The translations under genes and the position numbers were made by a program. From Paraspadella gotoi (lineage: Eukaryota > Animalia > Chaetognatha): a stretch of DNA of 64,000 nucleotides. The notes beneath the pieces are model-generated. The model had not been told where the DNA came from and ran no database searches. It saw nothing but the letters and a program-made list of their open reading frames with translations. The DNA lies in contig CM119266.1 in the NCBI GenBank assembly GCA_051294375.1, positions 8,456,606 to 8,520,605 on the forward strand, written 5' to 3'. This document shows positions 7,209 through 60,869 of this stretch, piece by piece. Each line of letters starts with the position of its first letter. Within the stretch, counting starts at the first letter, position 1.

Positions 7209-8153
7209 TTAAGGTACATAATCCTTTTCTCCAGTTTCTTCCTTCTTTTTTCCTTTCAACAACGTCACCACGATGATGGCGACGAAGATGACGACCACTC
7301 CCACCGTCTCCAACGCCGTGGGAATCTCTCCAAAAAAAGCCATCGCCATGAGAGTCGTGGTCGCGATGGAACCCGCGCGTAGAACGTTTCCAAATATTCC
7401 CGCGAGACTTTCCTCAAATTCTTCCAACTCGGCACAACCGACCTGTTGCGCGAGTCTGTAGATGGTTGAGATGCCTCCTACGAGTGTCACGGCCACCAAC
7501 GCCGTCGATGGCGCAGACGAAAATCCTGAAAAATCGGCGACTCCGAAGCACACGACGGCGATGGCGCTACTGAAGATCCAACGGAAGACAAGAAAGTTGG
7601 ACCAGTGTTCATCAGCGATGGCGCCATAAAAGAAAGGGGTCATCATTGCAGTCACTGCGTGAAAGAATGCAAAGAGGTAAGACCAGAATGGCGCTGAGAA
7701 TGGCACGCCAAAGAGAAAGGGCGGATGTGTCACCAGCAGCAGGCCTATTGTTACAGCTATGACGCCACCAACATCGACGGCCTCTATGCATTGTCGACGC
7801 AGTGCTGTCATTAAAAATGGTGAAAAGAGAACGCCAGAGCAGGATATAGCGGAGTAGGCGCTCAGCGGCATGACGGCTGCAGCGGAGCGCCAAAGGATGA
7901 TGCCTATGTTGATCATAAAAGCAAAGGCAAAAAATAAGGCCCAACGTTTCGGCTTGGTCACAGTCCAGTGGCGCCATGCAAATGGGATGAGGGGTATAGT
8001 TGTAATAGTCTCTCCAATGAAAATAAAAACATAAGCGATGGGAGTTGACAGCGGCGACGAAGTTCGAAAGATGTTGCTGCTGACGCTGCGGAGCAGCACG
8101 AAACAGCAGAGGAAGAAAACGCCCAACGCGAGATTGACAAGGGAGCGGGCCAT
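7209..8153 (-). CDS. EamA/DMT-superfamily membrane transporter, SLC35G-like, single exon, 314 aa
   Basis: Intact ATG-to-TAA ORF with about 10 hydrophobic helices in two repeats. Motifs GLLLVTHPPFLFG (typical of SLC35G) and FFGEIPTALETVGVVVI (end of an EamA repeat), plus a basic/acidic C-terminal tail. Confidence 0.85.
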   Translation of the reverse strand: MARSLVNLALGVFFLCCFVLLRSVSSNIFRTSSPLSTPIAYVFIFIGETITTIPLIPFAWRHWTVTKPKRWALFFAFAFMINIGIILWRSAAAVMPLSAYSAISCSGVLFSPFLMTALRRQCIEAVDVGGVIAVTIGLLLVTHPPFLFGVPFSAPFWSYLFAFFHAVTAMMTPFFYGAIADEHWSNFLVFRWIFSSAIAVVCFGVADFSGFSSAPSTALVAVTLVGGISTIYRLAQQVGCAELEEFEESLAGIFGNVLRAGSIATTTLMAMAFFGEIPTALETVGVVVIFVAIIVVTLLKGKKKEETGEKDYVP

Positions 8154-9999
8154 GAGTAGAAATGTGCTCTCTTGAGAATTATTCCAGTGGAACTGTAAAT
8201 TAAGGGAGTGGCCTTTTCATACAATTAAAACATTCTTTGAAACATTATACCACTTCATTGATAGGTACTCTGGGAGTGAATAAACGAGACTGTGATAGAG
8301 TCTTGATTGAAAGCATGAAGGGACCTCCTATGTCATTATCTTGTAAGAGTGATGGAGGCCTTAAACCACCAAAGCCTGTCCAAAGTCAGGGGCAAGATAG
8401 CTTATTGATTAAATGAATGGATAATTTTTATATTGGTTGTACCAATTTCATAAACAATATCTTTCTTCAGTGGAAATTAAATGTTCATTTTTTGACATTA
8501 ATTCAATTTTGAAAGGCCATTGGCATCCACGTAGCCCTCCTGAATGGAGTTTTAAAGCAGTGATGATGCGTCCTATTATTTGGAGACAATCTTTTTATAT
8601 ACATAAACATTTTACTCGCCGTTTATTGTTATCTTACACTGCGGCGCAAAAAAAAGAAGACACTTTTTCACATGGAAAAAACCGTATTGGATGGCTGAAT
8701 TCTACTAAGGTATAGAAACGTAAAACAAAGCTTATTGAAAGATAAAGCAATTGGTCTAAGTCCCAATAAAATCGAGCAAAGCGTTCGAAAGTTATAGGAC
8801 GTCAAAATCGATTGGTACAAAAAATCGGGGAAAAAAAATTCGTTTTTTTTTTTAATTAACAAGAGTCAATAATTTTTCCCTATTATAAAATATTTATAAT
8901 ATAAAATTGGCTAAACAAATTCCGCATAGAATATCTGTAGGGATAGGTGTCAACCATTTTTGACCTAAATCAAATTAAAATAAGTAAAGAAACTACTTAA
9001 AAAAAAACAATCTTTTATCATCAGTCCGAAAAAAAAGTATCATCAACTTAACCTCCAAAAATCATTTTTTCCCCAATTCCGTTTTCAGACTCTGACTTTA
9101 AAATATTGCTGTATTCTACTGCCTGAACCAATTTATTTTTTTGCACCAATAGATTTTTAAAAAATATACATATTTATTTTAAATTAAAAAAGAAATAGTC
9201 GGGGTATTTTAGAGCTAACAAGCGTCTTCTTTTTTTTTTTTTTTTGCGTCGCAGAGTACCATGAAATAAATTAGATTTACCTTTAAGTGTTAAAATATCC
9301 AATTAAATCCAGAGAAGAATTTTTATCTTTCAAGTTTCTTTCTAATAAAACTTGTGGTTTTTAAGAGAAAAAGAAAACGGGTTTCTTCCTATAAGTGATA
9401 AGAGAGTTGAACAGGTTTTAAATTAAGACCTCGTGGGAAAATAAAATTCCGACGACGACGAACCAAAGTAAAGAACAATTTATCCAAGTCAAGCAACTTA
9501 TGGTTTTTTTTACTTATCTGTAAACTAAACTTAACCAGTGATTTGGAGTTGAAAGTGAAGTTGAAACGGACGGACGGAATGAAGATGAAGTAACTGAGCA
9601 ATCAAAACAGGGAGATGACTGGCTGATCCTACTAAAAATACGAAAAAAAAAAAATATTGAACAATTAGGAATAAATCCGGGAGAATCGTGTTAAAATATA
9701 GGATAATTAATAACGTATTTAAATACGGCAACTGAATTTAAATCTAGATGCTTTTAATTTAAATAACTCCGAACGGCTGCTATTCTCACTACTTTTTCGA
9801 GAAGAAAGAGAGACTCTTTTAAATGACAATTGAAAATTATGCTTAACTTTTTTTCGTACATGAACGTTGATATAATAACATTAAATACAAGAATAAAAAA
9901 CCACTTTTATCCATTGAGTATCGCCACTCATCGCCATTCAACCGGTCGCCAATGAATCCATCCTATCTTCTCCTTTAAATAATTCTCACCCATCGTCAA

Positions 10000-16552: not shown

Positions 16553-19500
16553 AATACGTAATCCTTCGGCCTAGTTCGTTTTATCAACTATGTATTTGTT
16601 GTGCCCATATAAATGTCACATTACTGTAGAAATACATTTTTGAAACATTTTTCCAAGTTTCGAACTTGTTGTAAAAAAGAACAACTAGTATCAATCACAT
16701 CAAAAACAAAAACGGATTAAAGATAAAATAAATAAAACTTTTTTTAAAAAAATATTTTCTAACAAATCATTGCTATTATTTATTTCAGAATATCAGTTAC
16801 ATAATAGAACAAACTTTACTATTCTTTTCTTCTTTTTTCTCCATTTTCTTGGAGGAATTTTCTTCTTCCGACCTGTTAAAGACAAAAAATAGGCATAATA
16901 AGTAAATTATTTAAATTCAAATATTACTTGATAAAAGTTACTTGTGATCCAAGCTGGAAACTATCTTGTAGGCTTTCTGCGCACCGCCGACCGCCATGCC
17001 GACCTTTTGGAATTTCGCCCTGAGTGACTTTGACGGCTTGGCGGTCATCTTCGCCAACTCCTCCGACAGAAGAGCCGCGTCTTCGTCGACCTTGAAATGA
17101 ATTGAAATGAATTGAAATGAATTGAAATGGATTGAAATGAATTGGAATGAATTGAAATGGATTGAAATGAATTGGAATGAATTGAAATGGATTGAAATGA
17201 ATTGGAATGAATTGAAATGAATTGAAAGTCAATTTTTCAGATTAAAAAAAATATTTCTATAATTATTTCAGTTTCATTTCATTTTTTTAAATTTTGCCAT
17301 TGATGTAGTTGAAAAAAATATTCTCTATTGTGGCGAATCATAAATTCGCCTCCCGTATAGCTTGGTGAAACTCAGCTCGTCCCATTGGCTTGGACCGCCG
17401 AGTACTCGTTTACCAACCCACATTACCATACTATTTCATTTTTTTATTGGCAAAAAATGCGATCGAGAAAAAATTGAAAAAAATTGATTCTAAAATTTAT
17501 TCTACTATGCACTAGGCCGAAATTTACCCTCTATTTAACTCAAAAGTAAACTAAACTAAATAAAAAAAAAAAAAATAAATAGCAATTCCACTATTACCAA
17601 ATGTTTTTCAGTCTTGGCGTCGGTTCGAGCGACGATCGTGATTCCCGGAACGTCGGCGACGTGATCGTCGCAAAGCCAAAGCGTCCGTCCGCTGGGAAGT
17701 TGACAACAATTCAAGCCTCCGCGAGTCGAGTCCCTGTCCGCCTTCACCAACTCCTTCAACGTCTCCAAATAAGATTCTTGCAAGCGTCGATTCACATCCG
17801 ACGGATCCGCATTTTCGCACAATCGCGCGACGAGCGATTCGTCCTTCAGCGCCTCCAGCGGAATCAACATGTGCATGAACAGTTTGAGGGCGATGACGAG
17901 GTAAGGTCGCGCCGACTCGAAGAAGCGTGCCGCGTCAATGTCCTGCGGCAGTGGAACTCCGGGTTCCACGGCGTGCCAGCCACGCTCCGATTCGCAGAAT
18001 AGACGGAAACAGACGGGAGCGCCAAAGGTTTTGGAGATGGCTTCCGGAGTTGGCTCTGAGATTTTGTCTATGGCGAACACACGAGGGTAGGCTGTCTCGC
18101 TGATCCCGGTTAATTTGCGAAGTTCCACGAGTTGACGAAGGAACTTTCGTTGCTGCAACTCGATCATTTCTTGGAATACAATGGATTGATTTTGATCGGA
18201 GATCTGGGGAGCGTCGATCGTTTTATCAGCGGCCTTGTCGCTAGTCAGGATTTCTTTCAATTTACCAACTAGGACATTGACGGCATTTGGAGATTCCAGT
18301 TGCATGTTGATTTCTTCTTTTCCCATGGCCAACATTCCAATCTCACTCTCTTTCCAGCCACTCTTTGTGCCAACGACCAAAACAATTATTGGCAGACGCA
18401 GCGACGTCGATGCAAACCGAAATTCCATCTGACAGTTTTTGGACTTGACGTATTCCTTGGAAAGGCAGGCAACAACGACTCGCGCATGGCGAAGTCCTTC
18501 AGCAATGTCCTCAAATAGTCCTGCATCTCCACCAACTCTCTCAAAATCCATCCAGCATTGAATCCCTTCAGCTTCCAACTCTGTCTTTAGCATTCGGGGA
18601 TCCTTCCATCCAATGGCCTCGTCCGAAGGTGTCAAGTTGCAGGAATTCATCGCCATCAACGAATTTGACCAACAATAAGAAATGAAACATGGCGGGAAAT
18701 CGGCAACGCTGGATTTGGTTCCCGTGATCTGTTTTCTAACCAAATCGATAAGTTCATCTACCTTTTGATCGTAAATCGATTTATCATGAAAACTGACGTA
18801 CAAGTCTCCGGCGAAAAGTGATCCGGTGGGAGTTTTGTTCCAATCTTGGTTGTCATCTAAAAGTATGAGTTGCATGGGCTTCTTGAGTGTGTTATTGACG
18901 AATGAAACATGGTTTTTGCATTTGGAATCTTCAAGGAATGACGATGACATACAGACGACCGCGGCTCCGGATGTTTTGATATGCAATATGTTTTTTTCGT
19001 CCAAATCTTTGTGAAGATCAGTTAAGCAAGTAAACTCGGTTTTATTCTCTATATCGCTCATTATTTTTCTTGCCGTATCGTCGTCCTTTTCACAGAAACA
19101 AAAATAAATTTTCAGACTCATCGCTCTTTTCAACTCCTTCAATTGCTGTACGCTCGATTCTAATTGAACTCGGACGTGATGAGTATCTGCTCCATTTGTT
19201 GGAACTTCAGCTTGAATTTGTTGCAACGGTATTGAATGGAAACTCTGATCACATTGTATCAAAGGGACTTTTAATGTTAAGGCTCGTTTCACTTTAGAAA
19301 GAGGAAATAAGGAAGGCTCTCTGCTTCCATTATGGACGCAATCATTGCAAGGAATTAACAAATCGTAAGATACGCCCGTAAATGATTCTAGGATTATATT
19401 CTCAACAACTTCGTGGACGAGATAAAGAAGATTTTGGGGGTGGCTGCCGTGTACTTTTATCAATATATTTTGTTGGTCCTGCTGTGAAAATAAGCATTTA

Positions 19501-22500
19501 TGATCGTTTTTTTGCAGCAATGAACCTTTCTTCCATATGGAAAAGTAATCGGAATACTCACTTAGTCTAACTTGAGCTCGGTTAAACAAACCAGCAGGTA
19601 CAATTGGAAATTTGTAAATAAATCTGGTTTCGATCAAGCCGGATTTTGTATCTGGTAGGGGCCATTCATACTCTGGTTGAATTTCTGGCATTAGGCAAGG
19701 TACTAAACTATATGGTTTTTCATTTTCTGTCACTGGAACCTTAAAAGTTAAATCAAACTCCTCGGTTAAATTAAGAAGCCATTCATGGAGATCTTTTGGA
19801 TAATGTTGCCAAATAATAGCCACATCTTCGTGAAAGAATTTACCATCGATTATTTTGGAATCTTTGACTGACACAACGCATTTCATGACGTCCACTATCC
19901 ATTGCGGATTAATAACGACATTGTTCTTCAATGTGGTTTTATTAAAATGTTGTATAGAACCCAATTCGTGAAGGAACTGGCATACATCTTTAATCTCAGC
20001 TTCATCAACAATACCTGAATCCATTGCATAACTTGAAAAATCTGACCACGACACATGTTCGGTACCACGTTTTGCTTTAGTCACTAAAACTCTCTCAAAA
20101 TCAAGCCAGACTTTCGGGATCTTTTCTCCCATGTACCATTCTTGTAGTGTACGTTCGATGATGGAATCTCTCAGCTCATTGACGCCCTCTTTCGTTTGAC
20201 AACTTACTTGAAAGAAACCAACAATTTGCGGAAATTGTTTCTGTAGAGAATCAGTGGGCAATGAGAATTTGGCTATTTCATCTAAATGAGTCCCAATTAC
20301 AAATATTGGAGCAGTTGGAGCATGCGATCGGACCGAACTAAGCCAAAAGAGTAGTCCAGCATGCTCGTAACCCAATCTCATATTCCACAAAAGGAGATAA
20401 ACTGCTCTGCTGGTTAAAAAAAATTGATGCGTGTTGTAATAAACCGACTGTCCCGCAAAATCCCAAGCAGAAAAGGTCAACTGTTCTTCAGGAATATTCC
20501 AGGTAGCAATATCGATTCCATCGGTTACGCTTGTCGAAAGTTGTTTATCCATTAGTGAATTAAGCAAACTTGTTTTTCCGGCTCCGCCTAAGCCGATCAT
20601 CATGAGTTTGGTTCTTTTGCACTCAACCGATCCTGTTAATAATCTTTTCATGTATCCCATGACCGCAATGAATCCTTTATTTACTATTTCTATCGGTGGA
20701 GTTTTCAAAGCGTAGCATCCAGAGAGATTGAGCATTTTTAAGCGAAGTACTCCAACTTGAGATGACACATTCTCTAACGATAGATTGTAGGACAAATCCA
20801 GATTTTCCAAATTTTCTAAATTCTGAATTGAATCATCAATTTCTTTGAATCCTTGTCTTGATAGATTTAGGAAAGTCAAATTTTTCATCGATGTTAAATG
20901 AGAAAATTCAATAAGCTTTGGTATTTTATTTTGAATTAAATCTGCATTGAGTTTCTGAACGACGGTTCGATCCAAAATTCCGCTGTTATCTTCATCGTAA
21001 TTCTTAAATTTTTCCTCCATCATTTTATAATCTGAATAGTCGTAAAAGAATATCTGTGATGTGTACGACGCAATATCATCCAGGGAATATAGATCTTTGT
21101 TCTTTTCAGCTATCCAAGGAATTCCATCTAATTGTAATGTTTTCAGAGGTAAGTCACGTATTGCGGTAGGAATATCACTAAAGCCAACGGCAGATAAACA
21201 AAGATTTTCCAGCCGTTTTAAATTACTGATTGAATCGGGGAGTTTGTTCATTGTAGTATTGCTGGCCGAAAGAGTCTTTAAATTCGAAAGCATTCCGATA
21301 TTGTCTGGAAGACGGGCTAATGGATTGGCATCAATGAGCAAAATTTCTAACTCGGTACATTTGCAAAGAGACTCTGGGCATTTTTTTATCTTATTGTAAG
21401 AGATGTCTAAAACTTTCAGCCGAACGCACGTTTCAATCGAATCCGGTATTACTTCGATAGAGTTATGGGCCAACTTGATGTTTATTAAATGCGTAATTAA
21501 TTGAGTTAGAACCGAGATTTCGTTGAACGAATAATCTATGCTAAATATGACATTTTCGAATCCGTCGAAGTCCTCCGGTATTTTTTCGAGCATTAAATTT
21601 TTGAGAAAAGCTTTATTGTGACCTTTGCATACATGTTTATTTCCCTTCACCCACCATTTATCGGTATCTTGCTTCCAATAATTCCATTTATCGACTAAAA
21701 AGTCCGACTCTTTCGGAAAATCATTGGTAATCTTTGTTTTTTGAATAATTCCAATCAGCTTTTCTAGTATGTCGCTTCCAATAAATAGGCTATGAATATA
21801 GCTGGAAAGAATACTTTGTAAGGTCGTAATATTTTTCTCGCTATTTTCACTGTCAAACAAATCTTTTGGAAAAAAATGTTGTTCTGCATCACAAACATCA
21901 ACGAAATAGATAAGAGCACTAACAAACAAGTATTCAACATTGGGATACCGGAGGTCAAATTTTGTGCCCCAAGACCCATTGAAATGACAACTCTCATCTG
22001 CGCAACACAAAAAATGCAAGGTTGTATCTAAAAAGTGACTATATGCAGATGACCCACTTTTCGACGTCAATGGCAAGAGAACGCTGGGTTGAATTCCTTG
22101 ACCTTCCAAAAAACTCACGAGGGATTTCCTCGACTCAGAATCGGAACTGAAAACAGAGGCTAAATATAGAAAAAGGGAAAATGCCGAAGAGAGGCTATCG
22201 CTCTCTGCTTCCGCTTCTTTCGCATGGTTAAGTATATCAACTGCTCTATTTATAAGAAAAGAGTCAATTGGTGCAGAAGAAAAATTGTAACTTTCCAAAA
22301 TCTTTTCCCAAGATTTTTTGGAAGAGCCTACGATTCTATCATTGGCATTCAAAATCAAGGCTCCGCCGTTTTCGAGGTAGACCGGATCATTTTGTATCAA
22401 GTACTCGTGATATCCAATGGGATGAATTTTGTCCGAATCAACTTCTAACCATGAAACTGAACCCGAACCGAAATTGGTGAGTTGCTTAAATCCAAACTTG

Positions 22501-24042
22501 GCGTTTTTAGGTTTGGCGACGATCACTGCTCCGTACAGCGTGAATTTGTCCTCGCCTTCGATTTCAAAGACTCGACCATAAACAAGACTTTCATCGGATG
22601 CTGACCCAATTATCTCTTCCGGAAGAACATACGCTTGGTGGGTGTTGAAAAAATATGGTGGCACAGCCTTTGCCTTCGCTTCGGACAAATAATCTTTCCA
22701 GTTGAAAGACTCTTTTTCATAATGGATAGGCGGAGTAAGCTCTTGATTATCTTGGGCCGCATAACCCGCGGGAAAAAACCCAAAAGCGGTGACGTTTTCT
22801 TGAACAATCGAAGTTTTCCCGTCACTAAGAACAGAGATTTCGAGTCGAGACAAATTAGTTTTCTCATCCTCCACCAGATGGAGATCCACTACTGAAGCAA
22901 CCTCTGGTATGTAATCTTCCGTATTCAGCATCTCCAATTTCATACCCGGTTTCCAACTGGCAATTTTTTCAACGTCTTTCAAATTCAAAAGACTCGAAGA
23001 AGGAAAAGAAAAGTTAAGGAAGAATTTCGAGGAATTTTGTTTGTTTTTGTCTTTCACGAATGAACCAAAGTGATAAAGTCCCTTTGGCAAAAGAACGTGA
23101 ACGTCTTCGCAGAGACCAGTCGACAAACGCAACGTGCATTTGTCGTCCTCATTGCTGGGAAGCAAGGACAGATGCAACGCGCCGAGTTCCCCTTTCCCAA
23201 ACTTTTCAAACAAATCCAGATTTTCTCTTTGATCTCCTCTCACAACGATGAGCTCCTTCGCGAAGGCATTCATCAGCACAGTGTTTTCTCCGTGAACGTA
23301 AAAGTATAAATTGGGATTGTTGTTTTTGGCGACGCGAACGGTGACCGTCGGTCCGTAGACGGGATCCAATGGGCTCAACGGCAACGAGAATCCGTTGGTG
23401 TTATCTTCGTGAACGAAGTTCATGTTGCCGATGAGAGAGAGCGAGTCTTGCGGGTTGTGAAGCTGGACCCACTGCGGGTTGAGCGCGATGTACATGAGCC
23501 AAATCTTGAAGGCGGAATCGGGATGAAGACGAGGGAAACTCGGGAATTGGTCGGGGGTCGGAAGTCGTTTGGATGTGAAGTCGAGTCTGCAGAATTCCTC
23601 GTGAGGAGTCAAGATGGAGTCGGTCAGTTCGAACGATTCAAAGGTTCGTGAAGTGCGATTGTTCTTTAAGAGAGAGAGAGAGAAGTAGAGGAATCGATTT
23701 TGGAAAACAAAGGTTTAACTTTAAAGTAAACCATTTATTTTTAGTTTTTTATTAGTATTCCTTTAACTCTTACTCGATTACATTTTCATTATCATGTCAA
23801 GATGGTTAGCCATTCAAACCAAGAGACAATGAAAGCCTAAGGGACAAACAAACAGATACCTTTAGAGACGGGTAGAATAACCTAGATACAAAGAGACAAC
23901 AGTAATTAATTCTCACCCTCGTTTTACGATTCTCCAAAAAAAAAATTGTTATGTTTTGCTAAGGTTAAGTAATCACGCCTCGCCACAGGGTCGATGCCCG
24001 GTTGTCATTGTGTTAAGCGGTCGTAAGAGAAGCCGCTTACTC

Positions 24043-24094
<52 letters not shown>

Positions 24095-24948
24095 TCTCTC
24101 TCTCTCGTCTACTTGATAATTGCCGCGCTCTCTCATTTCAGTTTCATTCGTGATTGTCAGTGTCTCATCATTATTACGTCAATAGAATGCTTTATTACTA
24201 CTTATAACTAATATGAGCCTCTACAAACAATAATCACCATCATTTGCTAAAATCGATCCCTCTCTTTCCCTTAAACTCGGCCGGTTTTCCGTCCTCCAAT
24301 TTTTCCGCCGCGAAATTGAAGCAAAGACCGAATTCTAAGAAAACGAATTCCGCGACGATTCTGAAGAGACGAAAGATCGAGGCCGAGTGCGCGAACAGAT
24401 CCGATCGTACGGACGACTCGTCTCTTTTCCCTCCGGACACGAAGAGACGCAACGCGGACGTACGGACGGAGAGACGGATCGACGTCGTCGTCGTCGTTTC
24501 GACGGACAGTCGGACGTCGGTGGCGCCGATTTTGAAACGAGCGGCTTTGGAGGTCACGTGACTCGGGGAAGCGATGGAGGCGGAGCGGGCGACGAGGATG
24601 TCGAAGAGGCTCGTCGAGGAGACGTCGAGTTTGCGGGAGACGGAGAAGGTGGCGATGAGGGATGTCGTGTGGAGGGACTCGTTTTGGGAGCTGGGAATTT
24701 TTTTTTTTTTTGGGGGGGGGGTTGACGAGTTGAAGAATCCATTTATTAAGTTAGTTTTTTAAAATTTTATTTAATTTATTTAATTATTTATTTAATTATT
24801 TAATTATCTATTTAATTATTTATTTAATTATTTATTTAATTATTTATTTATTTATTTATTTAGTAATTTTTTAAGTTAGTTTTTTACAATTTTATTTATT
24901 TATTTATTTAGTTAGTTTTTTACAATTTTATTTATTTAAAATTGTATT

Positions 24949-24988
<40 letters not shown>

Positions 24989-27402
24989 AATTTTATTTCA
25001 TTTAATTTATTTATTTATTTAATTTATTTAATTTATTTAATTTATTTAATTTATTTAATTTATTTATTTAAATTCTTAGTCTTACTGTATCTCCTCGTCA
25101 TCGTCGTTGTTGTCGTCCTCTTCTTCCTTTCCTCCTCTCATCCTCTTCCAAATCCTCTTCCTCCCTCTTCTCTCCATCATCGCTCCACCATTCGCCTCCA
25201 AAAACTCCAACGCCGCCTCCACCTCTTCGTCCGACACTTTCGTGGGCTCCTCCCCTCCTTCGCCCGACGCCTTCTCCTCCAACTCGGCCGCCAACTCGGC
25301 CGCCACGAATCTTTCGCGGCGAGAAGCGACCAAGTTATGGATGTCGACGATGAGGGTGCGACGCACCTATAAGAAATAATAATAAGCGATAATCTCATTT
25401 GCATATATTCGTGTTGACTCTAAGTCAACATAAATTTAGAACCTGACTCATTTCATGAACTCAAATCGAAACTTAACTCATGCGATTAATAATAATGATT
25501 TCTGAGGGAGTTTGGGACATTTATCAATATCAATTAATACTTAAATTGGTATTAAATCAAAACAATACTCCTCTTACGCACCTCGACGAGCGACTGCATC
25601 CCCGAGGATTGAAGACTCATAAGAAGACCGCAGTCGGCCAACAGGCGTCGGCACGATCGACCGGCGACGAAAGACGACAATTCCGTCGGTCCCTTTTCTC
25701 CGGCCGACAAAGCGTCGGCTTCTTTGACGAGATAGTCGGCGACGGACGGCTCCAGATTCGTCAGATAAGAGAGAGAATCTTGGATCAAGAGATCGTGAAG
25801 TTTGTCGATCGAATCCATCAGCATCGATCGAATCTTTGATTCGTTTTCCTCCTGATTATTGGCCTGTTTCTTCGCCAGGCTCGAATCGGTCTTCGAAACG
25901 GGCAAGACCTTGACGCGATTCGAGATGGGCGCTAGACTGAAATCGGAGAAGGCGAGCGCTCGTCTCAGTTTGTTCACGCGAAAAAGTTGAGAGGAAAAGT
26001 TTTTGTTTTCGCTGAGAGTCAATTTTTGAAATTCGGAAACAGCGGATTCGGAGATTTCCTGGGGACACAGAAACGTGGTAAAAAATGTATGTTGATTGAA
26101 AATCTGTTTAGTAATTAGTACCTAGTGGTTAAATTGTGATCGCGAGATAAACTAGAAATCTCTCTCTCTCTCTCTTTATTCTTGAGTCTCTCTATTAATT
26201 TTTTTTTTAAATCTTTCTCAATTTTTGTCTAATTAATATTATTTACTAATAAAATATATTTTTTTATCCCTAACCTGAAATTGTTTTCCAAAATCCACCG
26301 AAGCTTTGCTCTCTTGCAGCAAAACGATTCCGGCAAATGGATTTTGATTGAAAATGGATTCGAGTATCGATTGAATTTCGTCCATTTGATCCCAAAATGG
26401 AAGAACGCAAATCGTGTTACGAGTGACGTAAGTCGTCGGGGAAGAAGATTCTAAGAGTTGAAAGATCACGTGTTGCGTACGACCTTGAAAATAAAAAAAA
26501 TTAAGGAAATCTTATGAATCGGATAAATGTTTTGGAAAAAAAACTGAACTTATATTTAGTTCAGGTATTGGCTCCCAGTGAGTAAAGGCAGGCTAAATAG
26601 GCCGCAACATCTTTACTGCATTGCTATTATCGGGCTCATACCAAAAATCATTAGGCAGGGAACGGAAAGGGAAGGGGAAAAAAGGACTATAAATTAACAG
26701 TAAGTTTGGTTGATAATTTGTGAGAGGGTAAACAGTAAACGATATCATTCTAACTAACACTACTCTCAAACGAGGCTCAACAAGAGAACAAAAAATTCTC
26801 CATTTATTCAACAATTATACTAACTTTCTCCCTACTTTGAACTAGTCGGTTAGGTCCTCCGTCACTCATACGTATTTTACAAATGTATAGTTTCTAAATC
26901 AAATCGACCATCCCACCACCCTAAACCACCCCCCTCTCTTCACCCTCACCTCCCACGGTCCACTTTTTCTCCACCACCACCTCCTCGTCAAATTCGAACC
27001 CAAATTCTTTCTCCACCAAATTTCTACTTTTTTTCGGGACGAGAAAAACGACGTTTACGTGGAGGAAAGATTTGCGGCTGTTAAATTTGTAAAAAAAAAT
27101 CATTTAAAACAAATTAACTAAAATAAATAAAAATTGACATTTACGTTTTATTGAGGACGAGGTGTTTGGGCGTGTGGGATGGAGAGTCTCCGAACTCAAG
27201 CAGAGAGTCGAGGCCGTGGGGAGGAGGAACGAGGGCGTTCTGAGAGACGGGAGACATTTAAATGTAAATTAAATTGTATTAAACTAAGTCATTAATACCA
27301 TATTTTCGTTTGAGAAATAATTTTATTTTTGCCTTTTTCTTTCTTCCTCTGTTCTATTCGCTTGTCTCTCTTGTACCTCTTTGTTTTTTTTTCTTTCATT
27401 TT

Positions 27403-27434
<32 letters not shown>

Positions 27435-27762
27435 CCTTTTTTTCCCCTTTATTTTTTTCTTTTTTCCTTTTCTCATCTTTAATTTCTTTTCTTTTCTCTT
27501 TTCTTTTCATTTTTTCCCCATTTTTTTCTTAGTATTTTAAAACCAAAATCCCTAAAAAAAAATTTATTAACAAGAAAACTGACCAAAAATAAAATATTAT
27601 CCTATTTAGTATTTACCGGGTCCATCTTCACAGTGGCAAGTTTGGGACAAAACTTTTTGAGCGAAAGAATTCCACTGTGCGAGATTTTCGGGCAAGCGCG
27701 AAGTTCGACGCGTTGCAGTTGGTCGAAGGACAGGGCCGCGTAGTGGAGACCTGGTAGGTAGG

Positions 27763-27805
<43 letters not shown>

Positions 27806-30800
27806 AAATTCTTGTCATTCTTGTTTTATTCCCTTGCTTATTTCAGCTATATTAACCCCAATTAACCCCCTTTAACCGAAATTAACTGACCAACGTCCGT
27901 CAAGTGATGACAACCGTTGCACTTGAGATTCCTCAGTCCGCTCATGTTCGGCGCCACGAATTTGAAGAGACCGAAGAATGAATCGTTGAGTTGCTCCAAA
28001 CCGGAAAAGTCTAAAGTGGACAGGGCGTGGTCCTGAAAAGGGGAAATAGAATATTAAAATAATAATAATTATAATGATTATAAAGTATGATGTGGAATTT
28101 ACAGGATAAAATCAGGAATATAAAATGCTTGGATTCCATTTCATGCATTTCATAATAATTACTAATAATACTAACTAATAATAATAACCTTAAAATGTTT
28201 TTGAAAATCGTCGGAAACCCAATAGTTTGGGTTGACGAAGAACTGAGGGCGGCCATTTTCTTGGATCTCGAAAGTCGGGATGTCGAGGTAGATTTTCTTC
28301 TCGAGAGATAAGAGTAAATCTGTTGTCAGTCAAAAGGAGAACATTAACTGTGTGATATATTGGGAAAAAGAGAGAGAGATGGGAGAGAGAGAGAGAGATG
28401 GGAGAGAGAGAGAGAGAGAGACTAAATTAACAGTCAAGCAGACAGAAACAGACAAAAAAGATAAAGAGAAAGAGAAACATACAGACAGACAGACAGAAAA
28501 ACGAACAGAAAAACAGACAGCAGTCAGAAACAGATTAAAAAAGAGAAAGAGAAACAGACAGACAGACAGACGAACAGACAGACAGACAGACGAACAGACA
28601 AACAGACAGCCAGTCAGAAACAGATTGAAGAAGATCAAGAGAAAGAGAAACAGACAGATAGACCGACAGACATAGTTAAACTTACGTGTCTGAATGTTGT
28701 CTTCCTCCTTTTCTTCCGCTCCCTTATTCCTCTCTAAAGTATCCTTCCACCAAACAGCGATCAACCCGGGCTTCTGCCGCGTCCTCTCCGCCCTAAACCC
28801 CGCCCCAGTTTTGTCCACCACCACCGTTGTCCCCATGGGCGTCAGCGCCACCTTCCTCATCGTCCCCCGCCCCTCCCTTTTCGCCACGTTCAGTTGCAGG
28901 CTTCCCGTTTTGGCGTAGCCGCCGCCTGTGGCCACCGTGTGGCGGTGCTTCGCGTCTCGGCGTCGGGGACGAGGCGGATCCGCTGCCGGACAGCGACGCC
29001 ATTTTTTGCGTCGCCGATGTAGTTGATCTGCCGTTCAGCGGAGCCGAGGTCGTCTATCGCTCCGTGGCGTCGCCGATGTAGTTGATCTGCTGCTCCGCGG
29101 CGTCGGCGGCCGCGCGAAGCTGGAGATTCGATTTTTGGTCGGTCCTTTCTTACTTTTGCCCTTCTGGGGCTGTGGGAGGAGGAGAGGGGCGTTAGAGGGG
29201 AGAGGGGAGAAGGCGAAGGGGGGATGGGTGAGAGGGCAGAGGAGAGAGGATATCGAGGGGAGGAGAGATGAGAGAGGAAAGAATGCGAAAAAGGAAGGCG
29301 AGTTAGAAAGGCTAAAAAAAAATTATGAAAAAAAATTATTTTCTGAGCTTTACAACTGAAAAAATGATTGTAATCCTCATTTCAACCGAGACTGAACAGT
29401 AGAGCGTTCAAAGATAACAAAATATAAGAAATTTAATTTCATTCATCATTGTTTTAATGTAATAAGGTCTGAAGAATTCGATAATGATAACCATTTTTTG
29501 GTATAGTTTCATCTTCCTTGTCGCCAGTGGCGATTTTTGAAGCATATAAGGTGCTATTAAAATGGCGTAACCATTGTAGAGAAACTAAAATTATTAAAAT
29601 TTTATAAAAGTCATATTTAGCTTATATAATATGAAAATAAAGACCCATAAAAATATTTTGATAAGTTTATTTACAAATTTTATATTTTATTAACAGCTTG
29701 TTAACTATATTTATTAATAATTAGTAGTTAAAAATAGGCTAAAGTAAAAAAATAAATATTTTGAAATTTTAAAACCGGATTTGAATTCCTTGCAAAAAGT
29801 TGATATAAGGAAGTAAAATCCATTTTAACAAATTCTTTCATTAAGTTGGTTAAAAATGTTAAAAACTATGATTTTTGTTTAACTTTATTATTTTTGGCTT
29901 AAAATTATAGTTTTTTAAAATTTTGACTAACTTAATGACATAATTTTTTAATAAAAATTATATTTTCTTATATCAACTTTTTACAAGGAATGCGAATCCG
30001 GGATAATTTTTTTAAAATTAATTTTTTTTAACTTTAGCCTAATTTTTATTCATAATTATTAATAAATATAGCTAACTAACTTTTAATAAAACATAAAATA
30101 TAGAAAAAAACTTACCAAAATATTTTTATAGGTTTTTATTTTTATATTTCAAAAGCTCATGTAATTTTCAAAAAAATTTAATAATTAGATTTATCATAAC
30201 TTATAATGTTTGCCCTATTTTATTAGCATTTTATATACATTAAAAATCGTCATTTCCGACAAGAAAGATGAAATTATAGAAAAAAATGGTCATCACCATC
30301 GAATTCTTCAGACCTTATTACAGTAAAATAATTATGAATGGAATTTAATATCTTATATTTTGTTATATTTGAACGCTCTACTGAACAGTAAGCTTTTATT
30401 TCATGTCTGTTAAGACTGAATTTTGTTAGTAGTAAAGTTGACGGTTCATAATTTATAATTCATATAATTCATAATTTAGCAGTTGCTGACCTAACTCCCG
30501 GGTCAACCGGCGAGACCAAGGTTACCGAAACTATAACCAAATCTTTAACCCGAATCCTTAACCTTAACCCCAATCCCTAATCTCTAACCCAATATTCTAA
30601 CCTAATCCCTAACCCTATTTAAATCTAAAAACTAACTTAATTACGAATTGAAGTTGAAATGGGGCGTTTTTTTGGGGAAAACATGGCGAACGGGAATGCC
30701 TAGTCTCGTGCCCCCCCCCCCGGCTATAACTCACCGATTTCTTTTTAGAAAAAGTTCTGATGGCCTCAGTTCTTTCTTCTTCTTCATCGTCGTCGTCTTC

Positions 30801-30968
30801 GTCGGCATTGGAAAATAATTCGTCGGGCTCCTCTGTTTTCTTTCCTTTCTTTTTCGCCATGGCTGAAAGATAAAAAAAGGAAAAATTATGAATTAGATTA
30901 TAGACAAAGTAATTAAATTTGAATATAATTCTAAACGATATAACTTTTAAATTATTGAAAGGTCGACA

Positions 30969-31053
<85 letters not shown>

Positions 31054-32679
31054 CCTCTCACTCTCTCTCTTCCTCTCTCTCTCTGTATCATGAAACCTTA
31101 AGTTCAAATACGCAATCAGAAAAAAAAATTTTCAAAAGTTTTTTTTTATATCAACTTACCCAATAATTTTTTTTCTGTTTCGTATTGCTTTGTTTCTTTG
31201 TTTTTTTCAATTAAACCCGAAGTAAAAACAATCTTATTGCATCGCTGGAGGAACCTTGATAAGTTACCAAAACAAAGACGAAAACAATCAAAACAGAGAA
31301 AAAAACAACGATCGTTGCAGGAATCGGTTTCCATGGAAACAAAATAACTGGTTTACCGAAAAATCATCGCATGGTAGAAAAAAAAACCGGAAAAAAAAAT
31401 TTCTCATCGGGTTCTAGAGTCGAGCGATGGGATTGACACGCAACGTGCGCCAAATATATTAACACGCAACGTGCACAGATTCCGTGTCGCCAATGTCATT
31501 GGACAATGAATGAACAACGGAAGGACAAAAGGACAAAGAAGGGTTGACGTTGAGACAAAGAAGTGACAAAGACAGAGTGAGAGAAAAATTAGATAAAAAA
31601 AAAAACAGTGGAAAAATATTTTCTGTAAAGGCAACAAGACCATATTACTTTAGCAACTAAACTTACAAAATGAACAATACTAAATAACAACTATTTAACT
31701 AATTGACTCTATTTTTCTTTAACAGTATTACCATAATTTTTTCATCTTCTTTGTATATATATCTTTTATTCTCTGCCCTTTCTCTTTCTCTTTCTCTTTT
31801 CTTTTAATATTAAATTATTTTCTTCTCTTTCTTTTTTAATCTTTCTATTTTTTCTCTACTCCTCTTCTCCACTTCTTTTTCTTTTCTTTCCACATGTCTT
31901 TAACTTATCTATTTCTCCTTTCTACTTCTCTTTTCCCAGATCATCCCAGTCTCTCCCTCCTATTTCCTACTTATCTATTTTTCCTCTCTCCCTCTCTTTT
32001 TCCCAGATCATCCCGGGTCTCTCCTACTTATCTATTTCTCCTCTCTACCTCTTTTTTTCCCAGATTATCCATGGTCTTTCCTACTTATCTATTTCTCCTC
32101 TCTACCTCTTTTTTTCCCAGATCATCCCCGATCTCTCCTACTTATCTATTTCTCCTCTCTACCTCTTTTTTTCCCAGATCATCCATGGTCTTTCATACTT
32201 ATCTATTTCTCCTCTCTACCTTTTTATTTCCCATATCATCCCCGATCTCTCCTACTTATCTATTTCTCCTCTCTACCTCTTTTTTTCCCAGATCATCCCC
32301 GGTCTTTCCTACTTATCTATTTCTCCTCTCTACCTCTCTTTTTTCCCAGATCATCCCCGGTCTCTACCTCGGGAATCTTCGCGACGCCAAGGACGAAGAA
32401 CAACTGATCGAGAATCAAATCACTCACATTCTCTCGATTCACGATTCGGCGAGAGCCATTTATCCCGTGAGATCTTCTGTGAAGTAGAGTCATCTGCGTG
32501 ATGCGTGATGAGATGGGGAATCTAATTCTGGAAATCAGAGACTCAGTCGTCCGTGCGTTGTGAATTGTTTTATGTTTTATAATTAGATTATGTAACAGCA
32601 TCACTCACACTCCCTGGGTGAGATTGATTTTATAAAAAATTTCAAGATTATTATTTAATTGAAAGTTGTCTCTACACTT

Positions 32680-32727
<48 letters not shown>

Positions 32728-33848
32728 ACTCTCTCTCTGTCAAATGTGAGTTTTCCTCACTGTCGATGATCACTGTTGCAAAAAGGATGACTGAAATATC
32801 GTTAGAAGACAAAGTTTAATTATTTTGCAACCACTGCCAATAGAAATGCGCATATCCTCAATTTATTTTTGTTTTAACCCTTTTAATTTCTTTTTCATTC
32901 CATTAAAAATTCTCTCCCCTCTCTCCCGCAGAACAAAAAGTATCTCTGCATTCCGGCGGCCGACACTCCCAGCCAAGATCTGGCGCAACACTTCCCGCAG
33001 TGCATCGACTTTATTCACTCCGGGAGACTCGGAGGTGGCGCCGTCTTGGTTCATTGGTAATTTTAAACTTTAACATAATACAAATACGTAAGGATATATT
33101 TAGTGGAGGTCGATATAAATATGACGAACAAAATGAGATGAATCAATTCATTGAAATGAGTAAAGTGAATGAAATCGAATCGTGTAATTGCACTTATGTG
33201 ACATTCAATTTTATGGGGATAGAGAGAAAAAAAAGAATTGGTTTACTTTTTTTGAAAATAAACAATACTTAATCATTATTCAATAAGGTAAATGGCACTG
33301 ATAGAATATTATATAAAAAATATAAATAAAAAAAAAATAGAAAAAAAGTGAATGCGAGAAAAAAGAAAAGAAAAAATAAGAAAAAAATAAAAAAATAAAA
33401 AAATACAGTAGTAATAATGAGGCATAGGTGAATTATTCAGTTCCCGCTATTTCATAAAAAACATTCAAAGTATATCATTTAAGAATAGAAGGATCATTCA
33501 TATTCAGTAACTACGTGCTGACAATAAACGTCGATAATATGTTTTACAAATTTTAAATGATGAGAAAATAAGTCAATTGAACTCTCCGCTCTGACAACTA
33601 GAGTGTAATGCTTACTTGATGTTCCTTTAATAAAAAAAGAAAACAGAAAACAGCACTTGATTTATGCTTGAAAGAATTAAAATCTTTGGTTACTGAATTA
33701 CTGAGTTAATTTGACTCCTGGTAAGTGAACGCGCTCGTCTGTGGTTAATGATGAATGTTTCCCTCGTAATGAAGTAGAGCGCAACTGAGCTAACGACTAT
33801 GGGCTCATTTGTTGGGAGTGTGCGGAGAGAGAAGAGAGAGACGAGAGA

Positions 33849-33896
<48 letters not shown>

Positions 33897-34011
33897 GGGA
33901 GGAGAGGAAGGAAAGAGAAAAGAAAAGATTAAGCCGGGCTAAGAAAGAGATTTATATTTGTGTTCAAAGACAAATTGAAAAGTTGCAAGGTGGTAGACGT
34001 GACAGAGAATA

Positions 34012-34089
<78 letters not shown>

Positions 34090-34166
34090 AATCCCAGGGA
34101 AGACAGAAGGGACAGTCTAAGAGGAAAGGGGCGTCCAACTATTAATCTCCATTGTTCTTCCTCGCC

Positions 34167-34203
<37 letters not shown>

Positions 34204-37200
34204 ACTTTGCCTAATCCGAATCTCTAAAACCATCTCTAAAACCATCATCTAAAACCACCAACGGCTTCAGCAAATTAGATTCGTTCCTTCATGCGACGAT
34301 AAAAAAAAATCTAAGATCACATATCTTAAAAGTTTCTATAAATCCAGTTAAATCTCGATAAATCCCGATGAAATCTCGATAAAACCGGCACAAATCCGCG
34401 ACTCTTGACTTTTCTCTTTTCTTCTCTCTCTTTTTATTCTTTATTCTTTATTTCTTACTTAGCACTTTTCCATTTTAAGTTTCTCCCTTTATTTTAAATT
34501 TTGTTCAACTACTACGAAAATCCCTTTATTAAATAACTTGCCCCTGACTTTGGACTTTGGACATAGCAGAACTGCGCGAGCTTTCAATAAAGACTTTTCC
34601 ACACCTACGGTCTAGTTTATTAACTGAGATATATATTGATTTTTCAATAAATGACTTCCTTACAAGTTACAAGAATGAAGGTTAATATCTTATTAGAAAA
34701 ACTGAGCAGAAAGTAAATTTTAACTTTGTGTTGTAAATAATATAGATGAAATACTAAATCCTTCATAAAATATAAAAATAGAAAATAGTGAAACAAGTAA
34801 TTTGCAAATTTTCCTAGAATTATAGATGCTCCCTCTATTTCCAGAGGACCACACTAACATTTTTTCTCCAAATTACATTATTAAATATAAAATAACTTAG
34901 TCTAATATAGTAAAATAAGTAATCTTGCAATTGTCCAATCCTTGCTTCTCCTGTTATCTCCTTCTTCCACCCTTCCTTTCATTCCTCCTTCTCTTTCCCC
35001 CCCCCTCATCTACCCCCAACCACCCTTCACCCACCCCCCCATCCACCCCCAACCCTTCGACAGCCTCGCCGGCGCCTCTCGCTCCGTCACCGTCGTCGTC
35101 GCCTACTTGATGACCGTCACGAATCTCAACTGGCGCGACTCTCTTCTCGCCGTTCGAGCGGCTCGTCAAGTGGCCAACCCCAACTTTGGCTTCCAGCGTC
35201 AGTTGCAGGATTTCGACGCTGGAGGGGGACTGAGGAGGGTGAGTCGTGAGATCGGCCAATCGTGTCAGATAATCGACCAAGCAAAAACTATCTATCGAGC
35301 AATCATTAGATTCTTCGATCAATTGAACAATTATTTCGCCTTTGACGCAATCGAGAACACGATTAATCAATCATTTGTTAAGTTAATTTTGTTAATTTTG
35401 TTAATCAAGCATTAGTCGACCAAGCAAATAATCTGGCAAAAGTTCTATCAAGCATCAGTCAACCAAGCAAATAATCTTGCAAAAGAAGTCGCCATCTTAA
35501 CGCGCCGACAACGCCCGTTCACCCTATCATTTCATAAATTATTTCATAAACCAATTAATCCTTCGAAAAAACTATTATTTTTTTTTTATTAAATCATCTA
35601 ATCAAGAAATTATCCAAACAACAAATTAAAAAAAAATCTTAAAAGCATAAGGATCAAGCCATGATGATATTGATTCGGGTGAGCTTCTTTGTGACGTAGT
35701 CGTCGTCGTCGTCGTCGACGGCGTCGTCGTCGTCGTCTCGTCGCCGTCACGCTGTTTTTAATAAAAACTACTACGCTTTTATAGGTTTGGCTGTGACTTA
35801 CCGTTTTTTTTTTAAATAAAAATTATTATGAATTATGATAAAGTTTTACAAAAGTGTGCATTCATAGTAAGTTAAAAATTTAGATATGGATTCTCATCTT
35901 GAAATAGCTTTGATATTTTTTATTACATTTGGATTTAAGTATTTTTTGTTTGAATTTCCACTTCATTATGATTTACTGCAATATGCAAATGAGATTATAG
36001 TACTCATTATCATATCCAAATTAGTATATAGAAATGCTTTAATCTAATTTACATATTGCAGTATATAATATTGAAGATGAAATTCAAAAAATTTTTTTAA
36101 ATCTCTAATAAAAAATGGGAACTCAAAATAACTTTTTAATGAGAAGCTATATCTTAATTTTAATACAAATAAAAATAAAATCTTTTACAAGCTGCGATTG
36201 GAAAAAATTGGAAAAATTTCCAATTGTAAACCATTGTAACATTTTTTGCCTTTCTTTTATTTCTTTTATTCTTTTATTTTAGAAAAAAACGAGTTCAGTT
36301 TCTGCACTGACTGTACAGCGGCCTTCAAGCAGCTGTCCAGCTTTGTCTCTCTTTCTCTCTCTTTCTGTCTCTTTCTCTCTTTACGATCTCTTGCGTGATC
36401 GTTCTTTTTTGAAAAATTATGATTATGTTTTTTTTTCTAAAAACTTTTATTCAGGGCTTTTTTCTCAATACAAAATCCCAAATTTACATCCGAGATTTTC
36501 GTGAATACATTTTAAAAAAAGTAAAGAATAACTTATATTGACATGCATTGCCACATGTAAATCAGCTAATGTGACTTATTATATATGCAGCACTTTCGCT
36601 GAACAATATGCATTACATTAAAAAAATAAATTTGTATTTATTTATTATTGTAACTTTGAACTGGTTGGCCCACTATTGGCAAATTATATCTAAAATAGGA
36701 GTTGATAAGAGAGATATAGTCCAAATTAAACATTACTTTTTTGTTATTCTGATAATTTATACTATTATTAAATTATAAATATTTTTAGTGTATATATTTA
36801 ATCATTTTTATCTTTTTTTTAAATAATAATTATTTGAGTTGTGATAACTATTATAAATTAATTAAATATGCAAATATAAAATTTGACCTCGGTCTGGTTT
36901 CTTCCTAAAAAAGAACAATCAAAAATTTCATTCAAGATTAAATTTTTTTTAAAATGAGGAAAAAAAAATATTTGGAAGTCAAAAATATCATAGTCGTGAA
37001 CAGAGTATTTTCAACTATATATTTTGTTAATAGGGATTATAATTTTTGGATCATTATTATTGAAAAGAGTTTAGCTTTATCAAGTTTTTCTTCTTCTGAA
37101 TAGGGGTAGCCCCTCTCAAACGAAAATTTATGCATTTTTAAGTTTACTTTCAATGTACAAAAAATTTCTTATATGGCTCTATACCCAAATATTTATTTTG

Positions 37201-37359
37201 TAATATTTTTTATAGAAAGGAAAAGAGTTCGTCCCTACTCATATTCGTCGGAAAATGAGTTCAGCTCTGCAGCGGCGGTCCAGCGGCGGTCCAGCGACTG
37301 TCCAGCTTCTCTCTCTCTCTTTCTCTCTCTCTCTTTCTCTCTTCTCTCTCTTTCTCTCT

Positions 37360-37391
<32 letters not shown>

Positions 37392-37559
37392 CTTTCTAAA
37401 AACTTTTATTATCGCCATTTATTCCGCGCTTTTTTCTCAATACAAAATCCAAATTTACATCCGAGATTTTCGTGGATTTTTTCCCTAAAAATTCTGATTA
37501 TTCTTTATATAAACGAGAGAGACCTAATAATGCGTTTCGTTGGCGGGAAAACTGTCCAG

Positions 37560-41620: not shown

Positions 41621-41655
<35 letters not shown>

Positions 41656-42697: not shown

Positions 42698-42761
<64 letters not shown>

Positions 42762-42878
42762 CTTTCTAAAAACTTTTATTATCGCCATTTATTCGCGCGC
42801 TTTTTTTCAATACAAAAACCCAAATTTACATCCGAGATTTTCGTGGATTTTTTTCCCTAAAAATTCTGGGAAACTGTC

Positions 42879-49100: not shown

Positions 49101-49226
49101 CCGTTCTTTTATTTTCATTTTTGTTTTTAAAAAAAAAACTTTCATGAAAATTCAATTTCAATTTCCGTGGACGCCGACGCTAAACCGTAGACAACTACGA
49201 TTGACGTCATCAGTAACTTCGCGACG

Positions 49227-49294
<68 letters not shown>

Positions 49295-49323
49295 CTCTTC
49301 TCCTCTCTCTCTCTCTCTCTCTC

Positions 49324-60785: not shown

Positions 60786-60869
<84 letters not shown>

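Follow-up and report, generated by a model that had tools for sequence, protein, structure and literature searches.

A kinase-free Roco protein of about 3,000 residues with one intact and one degenerate ROC-COR unit, paired TIR domains and a CaaX end

The window (the whole 64-kb stretch of DNA analysed) contains a real gene for a kinase-free Roco protein of about 3,000 residues. Its family has the domain order LRR–ROC–COR–variable slot–LRR–ROC–COR–TIR–TIR–putative Zn domain–CaaX. ROC2 keeps its motifs, the catalytic Glu of TIR2 is invariant and the CaaX end is conserved; ROC1 and TIR1 have lost their catalytic motifs. On this basis we propose, with a probability of about 0.5, that the protein serves invertebrate cell defence as a signalling switch that is prenylated, gated by GTP and cleaves NAD.

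For LRRK2, the Parkinson's protein to which this invertebrate one is related, there is still debate on how a ROC-COR unit governs the output domain (PMC6337361). Here a TIR stands in place of the kinase, which provides a candidate output that is easy to measure (NAD+ turnover, cADPR). The natural pairs of degenerate and intact domains, with Trichoplax as an all-intact control, make GTPase-to-effector coupling directly testable. If the proposal is true, molluscs, annelids, rotifers and lancelets gain a class of TIR-enzyme receptors that work inside the cell and are distinct from the NLRs. Three prior surveys already list family members, without functional tests there, and the steps of the mechanism are proposals. 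As the earlier note on this DNA had supposed, the literature searched yielded no work on the function of the full protein.

Gene model

The model has 14 exons and 2,972 codons, running from ATG at 30860 to TAA at 16797 on the minus strand. Exons outside the domains described below are:

30735..30860, minus strand: exon 1, with the ATG; N-terminus Lys-rich, acidic after
28686..29169, minus strand: exon 2, low complexity
28189..28319, minus strand: exon 3, cap preceding LRR1, placed by phase and profile
17598..23663, minus strand: exon 12, 6,066 nt, a large ORF with an open frame of 2,022 codons
16942..17090, minus strand: exon 13, helical linker
16797..16872, minus strand: exon 14, KVCSIM (CaaX box) and stop

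The earlier note had spliced 11 upstream and 2 downstream exons to exon 12 by hand. All connect in phase, 12 of the 13 introns are GT-AG, and an N-terminal family profile matches the upstream exons in order (108 bits across exons 2–8), so that phase and homology support the chain, with flaws at exons 2 and 11. The Lys-rich start also occurs in many homologs. Exon 2, without significant match among the family proteins compared, contains as a single exon a TGA in frame at 29037, which lies in an imperfect duplication of 59 nt; the frame is also open if an intron at 29153-29028 or 29153-28926 removes the TGA. The end of exon 11 is set by homology, the sole in-phase consensus-like donor nearby being aag/ggaaag. 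Weak GC donors and upstream GT donors likewise preserve the frame, and homology does not tell the choices apart (64–73 bits).

The TGA and the lack of a good GT donor after exon 11 would fit a broken locus, either a pseudogene or a split with exons 1–11 separate from exon 12, but we regard this as very unlikely. Exon 12 is open throughout with all catalytic motifs present. Two homologs, P0140 and P0144, each consist of a single ORF and align in one stretch to model residues 764–2824, and the exon 11/12 join is supported because a close relative aligns across it. Near-identical copies elsewhere in the window show 91 gap openings versus 15 mismatches in 4,349 bp; since gap openings far outnumber mismatches, the assembly is indel-prone. 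Both the exon 2 stop and the missing exon 11 donor are consistent with assembly indel errors.

Family and distribution

The earlier note allowed for homologs in other invertebrates, and these exist: the family has 224 matches, from placozoans to lancelets, with the domain order in common. Of these, 120 are listed and 104 are not. Among the matches listed with names there is no vertebrate, arthropod, echinoderm, cnidarian or sponge, and among those listed Lineus, Dimorphilus and Ylistrum have at least six proteins each. One lancelet homolog is auto-named MFHAS1. In trees of 25 chosen rows the window protein groups only with P0140 (100/100); a grouping with Dimorphilus in a quick tree was lost once P0140 was added.

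Trichoplax TRIADDRAFT_57945 (P0080) and Aplysia LOC101848126 (P0060), both among the 224 matches, belong to the same family as the window protein. The former is listed with a second Ras-like domain, proposed as its signalling output (PMC4104024), the latter in PMC9334734, and an oyster C2 form and a Trichoplax MBT form in PMC5094078. The domain listings of these surveys cover ROC-COR, LRR, TIR and MBT. Their relevant sections make no mention of a COR after the first GTPase or its degeneration outside Trichoplax, of a TIR1 without Glu or of a conserved CaaX. The window copy differs from the surveyed relatives in that its MBTs are degenerate.

Intact GTPase and TIR pair

The protein's C-terminal part contains:

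20151..20612, minus strand: ROC2 GTPase; G1 GLGGAGKT, G3 WDFAGQ and G4 GTHLD intact
19215..20117, minus strand: COR-A and COR-B of the intact unit, by Pfam
18717..19115, minus strand: TIR1; His replaces the catalytic Glu, codon at 18911
18243..18701, minus strand: TIR2; catalytic Glu, codon 18425-18423
17652..18212, minus strand: C-terminal domain, no Pfam family; conserved Cys/His/Cys/His, a putative Zn site

In exon 12, Pfam finds Roc (E 3e-20), COR-A (5e-28) and COR-B (3.5e-27) in order and above cut-offs, followed by two stretches of TIR_2 (7e-19). The ROC2 G1 motif is present in 120/120 homologs and DFAGQ in 119/120. With a ROC that adjoins a COR and intact G motifs, the protein is, judged by its sequence, a Roco. 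It is also kinase-less as claimed earlier: Pfam finds no kinase family in exon 12, and a regex for the kinase catalytic loop has no match in the model or in any of 120 homologs. We reject the database label ‘serine/threonine kinase’ because that motif is absent. Pfam likewise finds no NACHT or NB-ARC in exon 12 or the upstream exons tested, and the likeness to NLRs (STAND) is an analogy only. No relevant Pfam family came from ten single frames that were taken from exons on either side of exon 12.

The proposed tandem TIR effectors hold as two folds, but the catalytic Glu is in the second alone. The predicted fold of both is confident (pLDDT 86.6), and both match solved TIRs (Z up to 16.5), including SARM1 9hq0 (Z 14.4, rmsd 2.4, 126 aligned). 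The Glu on helix alphaC is found in 74/74 rows for TIR2 and in 1/74 for TIR1 (Trichoplax), and two working TIRs are rejected; mean identity to the window is 48% versus 23%.

A catalytic Glu is insufficient for activity, since only 12/61 Glu-bearing animal TIRs were active in an E. coli assay and 49/61 gave no product (bioRxiv 10.64898/2026.04.20.719644). According to the same study, the TIR of at least one eukaryotic protein with Roc/COR makes cADPR, and the domain abbreviations for cADPR-producing TIR proteins in its Fig. 3 include Roc, COR and LRR. The inactive majority favours a non-enzymatic alternative, in which the protein is a scaffold or trafficking GTPase whose TIRs recruit other TIR adaptors and which, like LRRK2 or Dictyostelium Rocos, serves phagocytosis, the control of the cytoskeleton or membrane traffic. 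The Rocos characterised so far function in trafficking and chemotaxis (PMC4104024, PMC6337361), and the cycle proposed for LRRK2 is membrane trafficking via Rabs (PMC6337361). Adaptor TIRs are among the nearest structural matches of TIR2, ahead of SARM1 (Hydra TRR-2, Z 16.5; MyD88, Z 15.9). However, the TIR2 Glu is invariant, whereas TIR1 drifts at this site, and protist and choanoflagellate TIRs of the same subtype also retain it. We consider a scaffold somewhat unlikely.

In the C-terminal domain the Cys/His/Cys/His positions are conserved in 74, 74, 73 and 71 of 74 rows; ESM Atlas gave no usable match. The prenylation box described earlier is borne out by the CaaX-like KVCSIM terminus of the model and by a Cxxx end in 96/120 homologs (81/120 under a stricter pattern; Cys is 2.2% of residues). 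There is no clear polybasic second anchor, as the tail before the CaaX has six acidic and six basic residues.

Degenerate N-terminal half

The N-terminal half (LRR1, pseudo-ROC-COR, variable slot and LRR2) is fast-evolving. Its parts are:

28032-27891 and 27750-27617, minus strand: LRR1, exons 4-5, Cys-containing repeats
27239-27145, 27077-26950 and 26483-26275, minus strand: degenerate ROC1, exons 6-8, no P-loop
26058-25582 and 25366-25086, minus strand: COR-A1 position, exons 9-10, helical/acidic, highly diverged
24270..24690, minus strand: COR-B of the first unit, exon 11; 3' donor non-canonical or mis-assembled
22979..23519, minus strand: beta-rich slot domain, weakly SPRY-like
22260..22955, minus strand: two degenerate MBT-like repeats without aromatic cage
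20660..21614, minus strand: LRR2, typical LRRs with an EF-hand-like loop inserted

The two LRR types that had been noted are confirmed: Cys-containing repeats in LRR1, which we take to be FBXL/AMN1-like, and typical repeats in LRR2. The LRR1 exons match the family profile (E 2.6e-8 and 4e-5) and, by blastp, homologs down to 1e-16.

Two ROC-COR units had also been claimed. A COR homology is indeed present in the N-terminal half, but the first unit is degenerate. It scores 22.1 bits against the family ROC1-COR1 profile (best of the 133 scores reported from 200 shuffles, 1.3 bits), and its COR-B1 segment has E 4e-5 by family profile. Compared as family profiles, the N-terminal COR matches COR2 at 98.4% (97.8% without Trichoplax; reversed control, 0.1%). 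Exons 9-10 are placed by phase, with a weak match to P0140 (E 0.003). Pfam has no match to a first ROC-COR in the window exons scanned (exons 6 and 7 left out). A small-GTPase fold for ROC1 is weakly hinted at by hhalign (54–66%) and by a low-confidence model of a homolog's ROC1, which matches Rag, SR-beta and LRRK GTPases (Z ≤7.9, rmsd 2.8, 100 aligned). This model, made with AlphaFold for the ROC1-COR1 stretch of Ptychodera, was poor (pLDDT 46.8), and Foldseek found nothing for it at E ≤0.001. Its LRRK1/LRRK2 COR matches were discarded as circular because the alignment had laid the COR1 part onto homologs' COR2. The P-loop is absent from the window ROC1 and kept in 1/58 full-length homologs, that of Trichoplax (6/58 rows are empty in that column), so two working GTPases are rejected. 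Mean pairwise identity is 16% for ROC1 and 18% for COR1, versus 63% for ROC2 and 54% for COR2.

Across the family the slot holds MBT, SPRY, PLAT or C2 domains. The window slot domain aligns to family SPRY units at 56% by hhalign, a lead only, and had no usable ESM Atlas match. The MBT repeats of the earlier note survive as two MBT-like units, one found by family profile (E 9e-5) and the second by alignment, but they are degenerate, score 17.1 bits against a Pfam cut-off of 22 and are one of several slot occupants. The methyl-lysine cage (Asp plus aromatic) is absent from the window repeats, and its pattern is retained in 23/127 homologs. With the slot variable and the window cage lost, MBT as a constant functional reader is rejected. 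The window EF-hand-like loop is missing its acidic residue at position 12. Since both the MBT and the EF-hand have degenerated, neither can play its input role in the window protein.

An acidic position 12 is present in 52/108 homologs examined, and cADPR is linked to calcium signalling (discussion of bioRxiv 10.64898/2026.04.20.719644). TIR2 might thus be enzymatic with a constitutive or developmental cADPR/Ca2+ messenger as output, not defence, and the N-terminal half a passive duplication remnant, in keeping with the strong divergence of ROC1-COR1. Yet ROC1-COR1 is present in 75/75 family proteins of at least 2,600 aa examined (17/17 outside the profile-building set). The lineage expansions and slot swapping also resemble immune receptors, of which both are typical. 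We judge the developmental messenger improbable.

Proposed mechanism

For the signalling switch that we favour, the CaaX would be farnesylated, holding the C-terminal TIRs at the membrane, while the N-terminal half would sense an input and restrain the engine. GTP cycling by ROC2 would alter how the protein oligomerises through COR, a step that has been proposed for other Rocos. Clustering would then join TIR2 domains, leading to NAD+ cleavage and either cADPR-type signals or NAD depletion; TIR1 may be a non-catalytic spacer or brake. The sensor and immune roles are ones that we infer. The TIR-NLR-like logic put forward earlier finds support by analogy, with a ROC-COR GTPase and an intact TIR2.

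A tentative, more specific reading is that of a self-paired receptor, in which a duplicated LRR-ROC-COR unit that lost its P-loop docks COR-to-COR on the active unit. In the off state the pseudo-unit would take the place of the Roco homodimer, and the dead TIR would cap the live one. Ligand and GTP exchange would lift both brakes, and TIR2 would polymerise on the membrane and make a cADPR-type messenger. Trichoplax would represent the ancestral all-active state. If true, a counterpart of the plant TIR-NLR resistosome, driven by a GTPase, would be common among invertebrates.

Comparison with known proteins

Among PDB sequences the best matches (E 4e-43 to 1e-30) are LRRK2/LRRK1 and prokaryotic Rocos (4wnr, 3dpu/6hlu), with which the window protein has the LRR-ROC-COR core in common. 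Unlike LRRK2/LRRK1, it has no kinase found, a TIR-TIR output, an extra degenerate ROC-COR and its own CaaX in place of recruitment by prenylated Rabs. The group 1 Rocos MFHAS1/MASL1 and plant Tornado1 are also LRR-ROC-COR proteins without kinase, but as described in PMC4104024 they have a single ROC-COR and no TIR.

Plant TIR-NLRs, SARM1 and bacterial LRR-AP-GTPase-COR-TIR conflict proteins likewise combine a sensor, a nucleotide switch or brake and a Glu-TIR in one chain, an analogy of working. The window protein differs from TIR-NLRs and SARM1 in having a ROC-COR GTPase instead of NB-ARC/NACHT or ARM-SAM, and from all three in its C-terminal TIR, which is doubled (one degenerate) and followed by a lipid-anchor motif. 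Bacterial LRR-AP-GTPase-COR proteins bear variable effectors, TIR included, at the same position (PMC8195603).

The sea-anemone ‘Novel Gene 1’ has FBXL-type LRR, Roc, COR and TIR_2 in common with the window protein but is at most ~1,300 aa, with a single ROC-COR (PMC5094078). Thecamonas trahens XP_013756137.1 (P0215) has LRR-Roc-COR-TIR(Glu) and shares the C-terminal domain (by profile, E 1e-11), with a single ROC-COR and no CaaX; it is plausibly a pre-animal, single-unit form.

Gene structure

The gene in the window is real: it encodes a divergent member of an invertebrate Roco-TIR family that is widespread but uncharacterised. An ORF scan found a stop-to-stop frame of 2,052 codons (17556-23714, minus strand), in which Pfam identifies LRR, Roc, COR-A, COR-B and two TIR_2 stretches. 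Phase-based splicing yields 14 exons (8,919 nt, 2,972 codons) from an ATG at 30860 to a TAA at 16797, with C-terminus KVCSIM; the earlier note's chain of 11 + 1 + 2 exons agrees in count. GT-AG boundaries occur at 12 of 13 introns.

The model has two defects: exon 2 contains an in-frame TGA at 29037, and the expected 3' end of exon 11 lacks a good in-phase GT donor. Read at face value, they would suggest a broken locus, which we consider improbable. Assembly error is the likelier cause of both, because the copies of blocks duplicated in other parts of the window are told apart mainly by indels (91 gap openings versus 15 mismatches over 4,349 bp); in one 540-nt ORF pair, three single-base gaps are the sole differences. 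The window assembly is indel-prone. The closest relative among the proteins compared, P0140/P0144 (2,469 aa, from contigs roughly 7.6 kb long), aligns continuously with residues 764-2824 of the model, spanning the exon 11/12 junction.

The near-identical blocks (97-99%, mostly single-base indels apart) pair 43008-49879 with 52976-61402 and 36283-37496 with 41643-42868; they represent either haplotypes left uncollapsed or copies in tandem. Towards its 3' end, exon 2 (28940-28690, minus strand) resembles a folded module (YAKTGSLQLNV...GLIAVWWKD), with no significant match in Pfam or among the proteins compared. The acceptor of exon 13 has its pyrimidine tract formed by a 10-nt tandem repeat (13.6 copies, 17092-17227).

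Domain architecture

An N-terminal profile was built from 58 of the 120 listed homologs, those of at least 2,700 aa with a Cxxx end. It matches the family's second COR (COR2) at 98.4% (E 7e-15, 202 columns; 97.8% without Trichoplax; reversed control 0.1%). The match between the ROC1 and ROC2 profiles is weaker (54-66%). In Ptychodera, COR-A and COR-B are each detected twice by Pfam itself, and the ROC1-COR1 unit is present in all 75 family proteins examined of at least 2,600 aa. Window exons match it weakly but in order (22.1 bits versus at most 1.3 for shuffles). The two ROC-COR units proposed earlier are upheld by COR homology, but the first is degenerate: its P-loop is kept in 1 of 58 rows, Trichoplax alone, with six rows empty at that column. 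By its sequence it is best called a pseudo-ROC-COR. A regular expression also found GxxxxGK[ST] in P0002 and P0076; in the alignment, P0002 lacks a P-loop at the corresponding column and P0076 is blank at it.

The MBT repeats described earlier survive as two MBT-like units, one found by profile and the other by alignment; neither has the cage. The EF-like loop lacks an acidic twelfth residue, and both MBT and EF-hand are degenerate in this lineage.

An AlphaFold model of 19166-17598 (pLDDT 86.6, pTM 0.47) is confident per domain, so it does not fix the relative placement of the two TIRs and the C-terminal domain (CTD). Both TIRs match solved TIR structures; by sequence, even the top PDB entry, the CRISPR-associated Cat1 TIR, matches weakly (E 0.047). 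In an alignment of the window protein and 73 of the 120 listed homologs, the Glu with a catalytic role (PMC7075850 and preprint 10.64898/2026.04.20.719644, both as partly available) occurs in TIR2 of all 74 rows and in TIR1 of one, again Trichoplax. Both tandem TIRs have the TIR fold, but in the window only TIR2 has the Glu. The CTD that follows (190 residues) has conserved Cys/His/Cys/His, probably a Zn site.

Family distribution

Residues 700-1850 of the large frame matched 224 proteins, 120 of them listed. Named sources among those listed are lancelets, hemichordates, molluscs, annelids, brachiopods, nemerteans, rotifers, a flatworm, the nematode Plectus and Trichoplax. A Cxxx C-terminus is found in 96 of the 120 (81 under a stricter pattern), and several without it are partial models; a motif search found the kinase loop motif in none. 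Family-wide, MBT, SPRY, PLAT or C2 occupies the slot that separates the two halves, with MBT in 36 of 127 proteins by a family-derived profile.

Searching more deeply with the TIR-TIR-CTD region yielded 1,044 matches (150 listed). Twenty of these were looked up; among them, the family's TIR subtype recurs in choanoflagellate Tudor-TIR proteins, chytrid proteins and a Thecamonas protein, the last a single-unit LRR-Roc-COR-TIR-CTD form without CaaX. Because of these occurrences, the engine is probably older than the animals, and the second unit and CaaX are likely later additions, judging from few sequences.

Rotaria P0100, a family member, has TPR repeats and no CaaX end, a further domain swap, and Trichoplax P0080 shows Tudor/chromo-like matches in the slot. 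Choanoflagellate P0178, P0191 and P0211 combine Tudor with TIR_2 of the family's subtype, without ROC-COR. P0256, P0259, P0263 and P0279 form a separate family (about 1,400 aa, Death + TIR-TIR, related TIRs), molluscan wherever a source is named.

Proposed mechanism

The conserved C-terminal half carries an intact GTPase and the Glu-bearing TIR, and the protein holds a degenerate copy of each; the N-terminal half changes fast and CaaX is conserved. Prenylation at CaaX would anchor the TIRs at the membrane, the N-terminal half may sense and restrain, and the ROC2 nucleotide cycle would alter oligomer state, after the Roco model in the accessible part of PMC6337361. TIR2, once clustered, would cleave NAD+. 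We give this whole scheme a probability of roughly 0.5. Adaptor TIRs, the top structural matches, count against it; a scaffold or trafficking role is a less likely alternative, against which stands the Glu kept throughout TIR2. We also know of no infection link, and a non-immune messenger role seems rather unlikely. In a recent preprint screen (10.64898/2026.04.20.719644, seen in part), activity was seen for only 12 of 61 animal TIRs bearing the Glu, which likewise weighs against the scheme.

Relation to published work

The domain list is already known in part. As far as the accessible portions of these sources go, PMC4104024 describes Trichoplax TRIADDRAFT_57945 (P0080) with a Ras-like domain N-terminal of ROC, an arrangement termed novel there; PMC9334734 reports LRR, MBT, ROC, COR and TIR in Aplysia LOC101848126 (P0060) and puts forward a GTPase-TLR cascade; PMC5094078 mentions forms with C2 in oyster and with MBT in Trichoplax; PMC8195603 covers bacterial LRR-GTPase-COR proteins bearing TIR effectors; and PMC7159879 adds nothing further on animal members. 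For its cADPR-producing TIR proteins, preprint 10.64898/2026.04.20.719644 includes Roc, COR and LRR in the list of domains; its tested Roc/COR protein may or may not belong to this family, which bears directly on novelty. A literature search, mostly outside subscription papers, found neither the degenerate/intact (pseudo/active) pairing, nor the CaaX lipid-anchor motif, nor a study of any full-length member.

Neighbouring features

7209-8216, minus strand, intronless 335-codon hydrophobic membrane-protein ORF
31840-35415, plus strand, dual-specificity phosphatase gene (DSPc E 4e-12); it and the Roco gene lie head to head

The ORF, without a Pfam match at E 0.01, resembles an EamA/DMT transporter. 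In the phosphatase gene, a 57-nt unit containing an exon's acceptor site is present in seven copies at 31965-32365.
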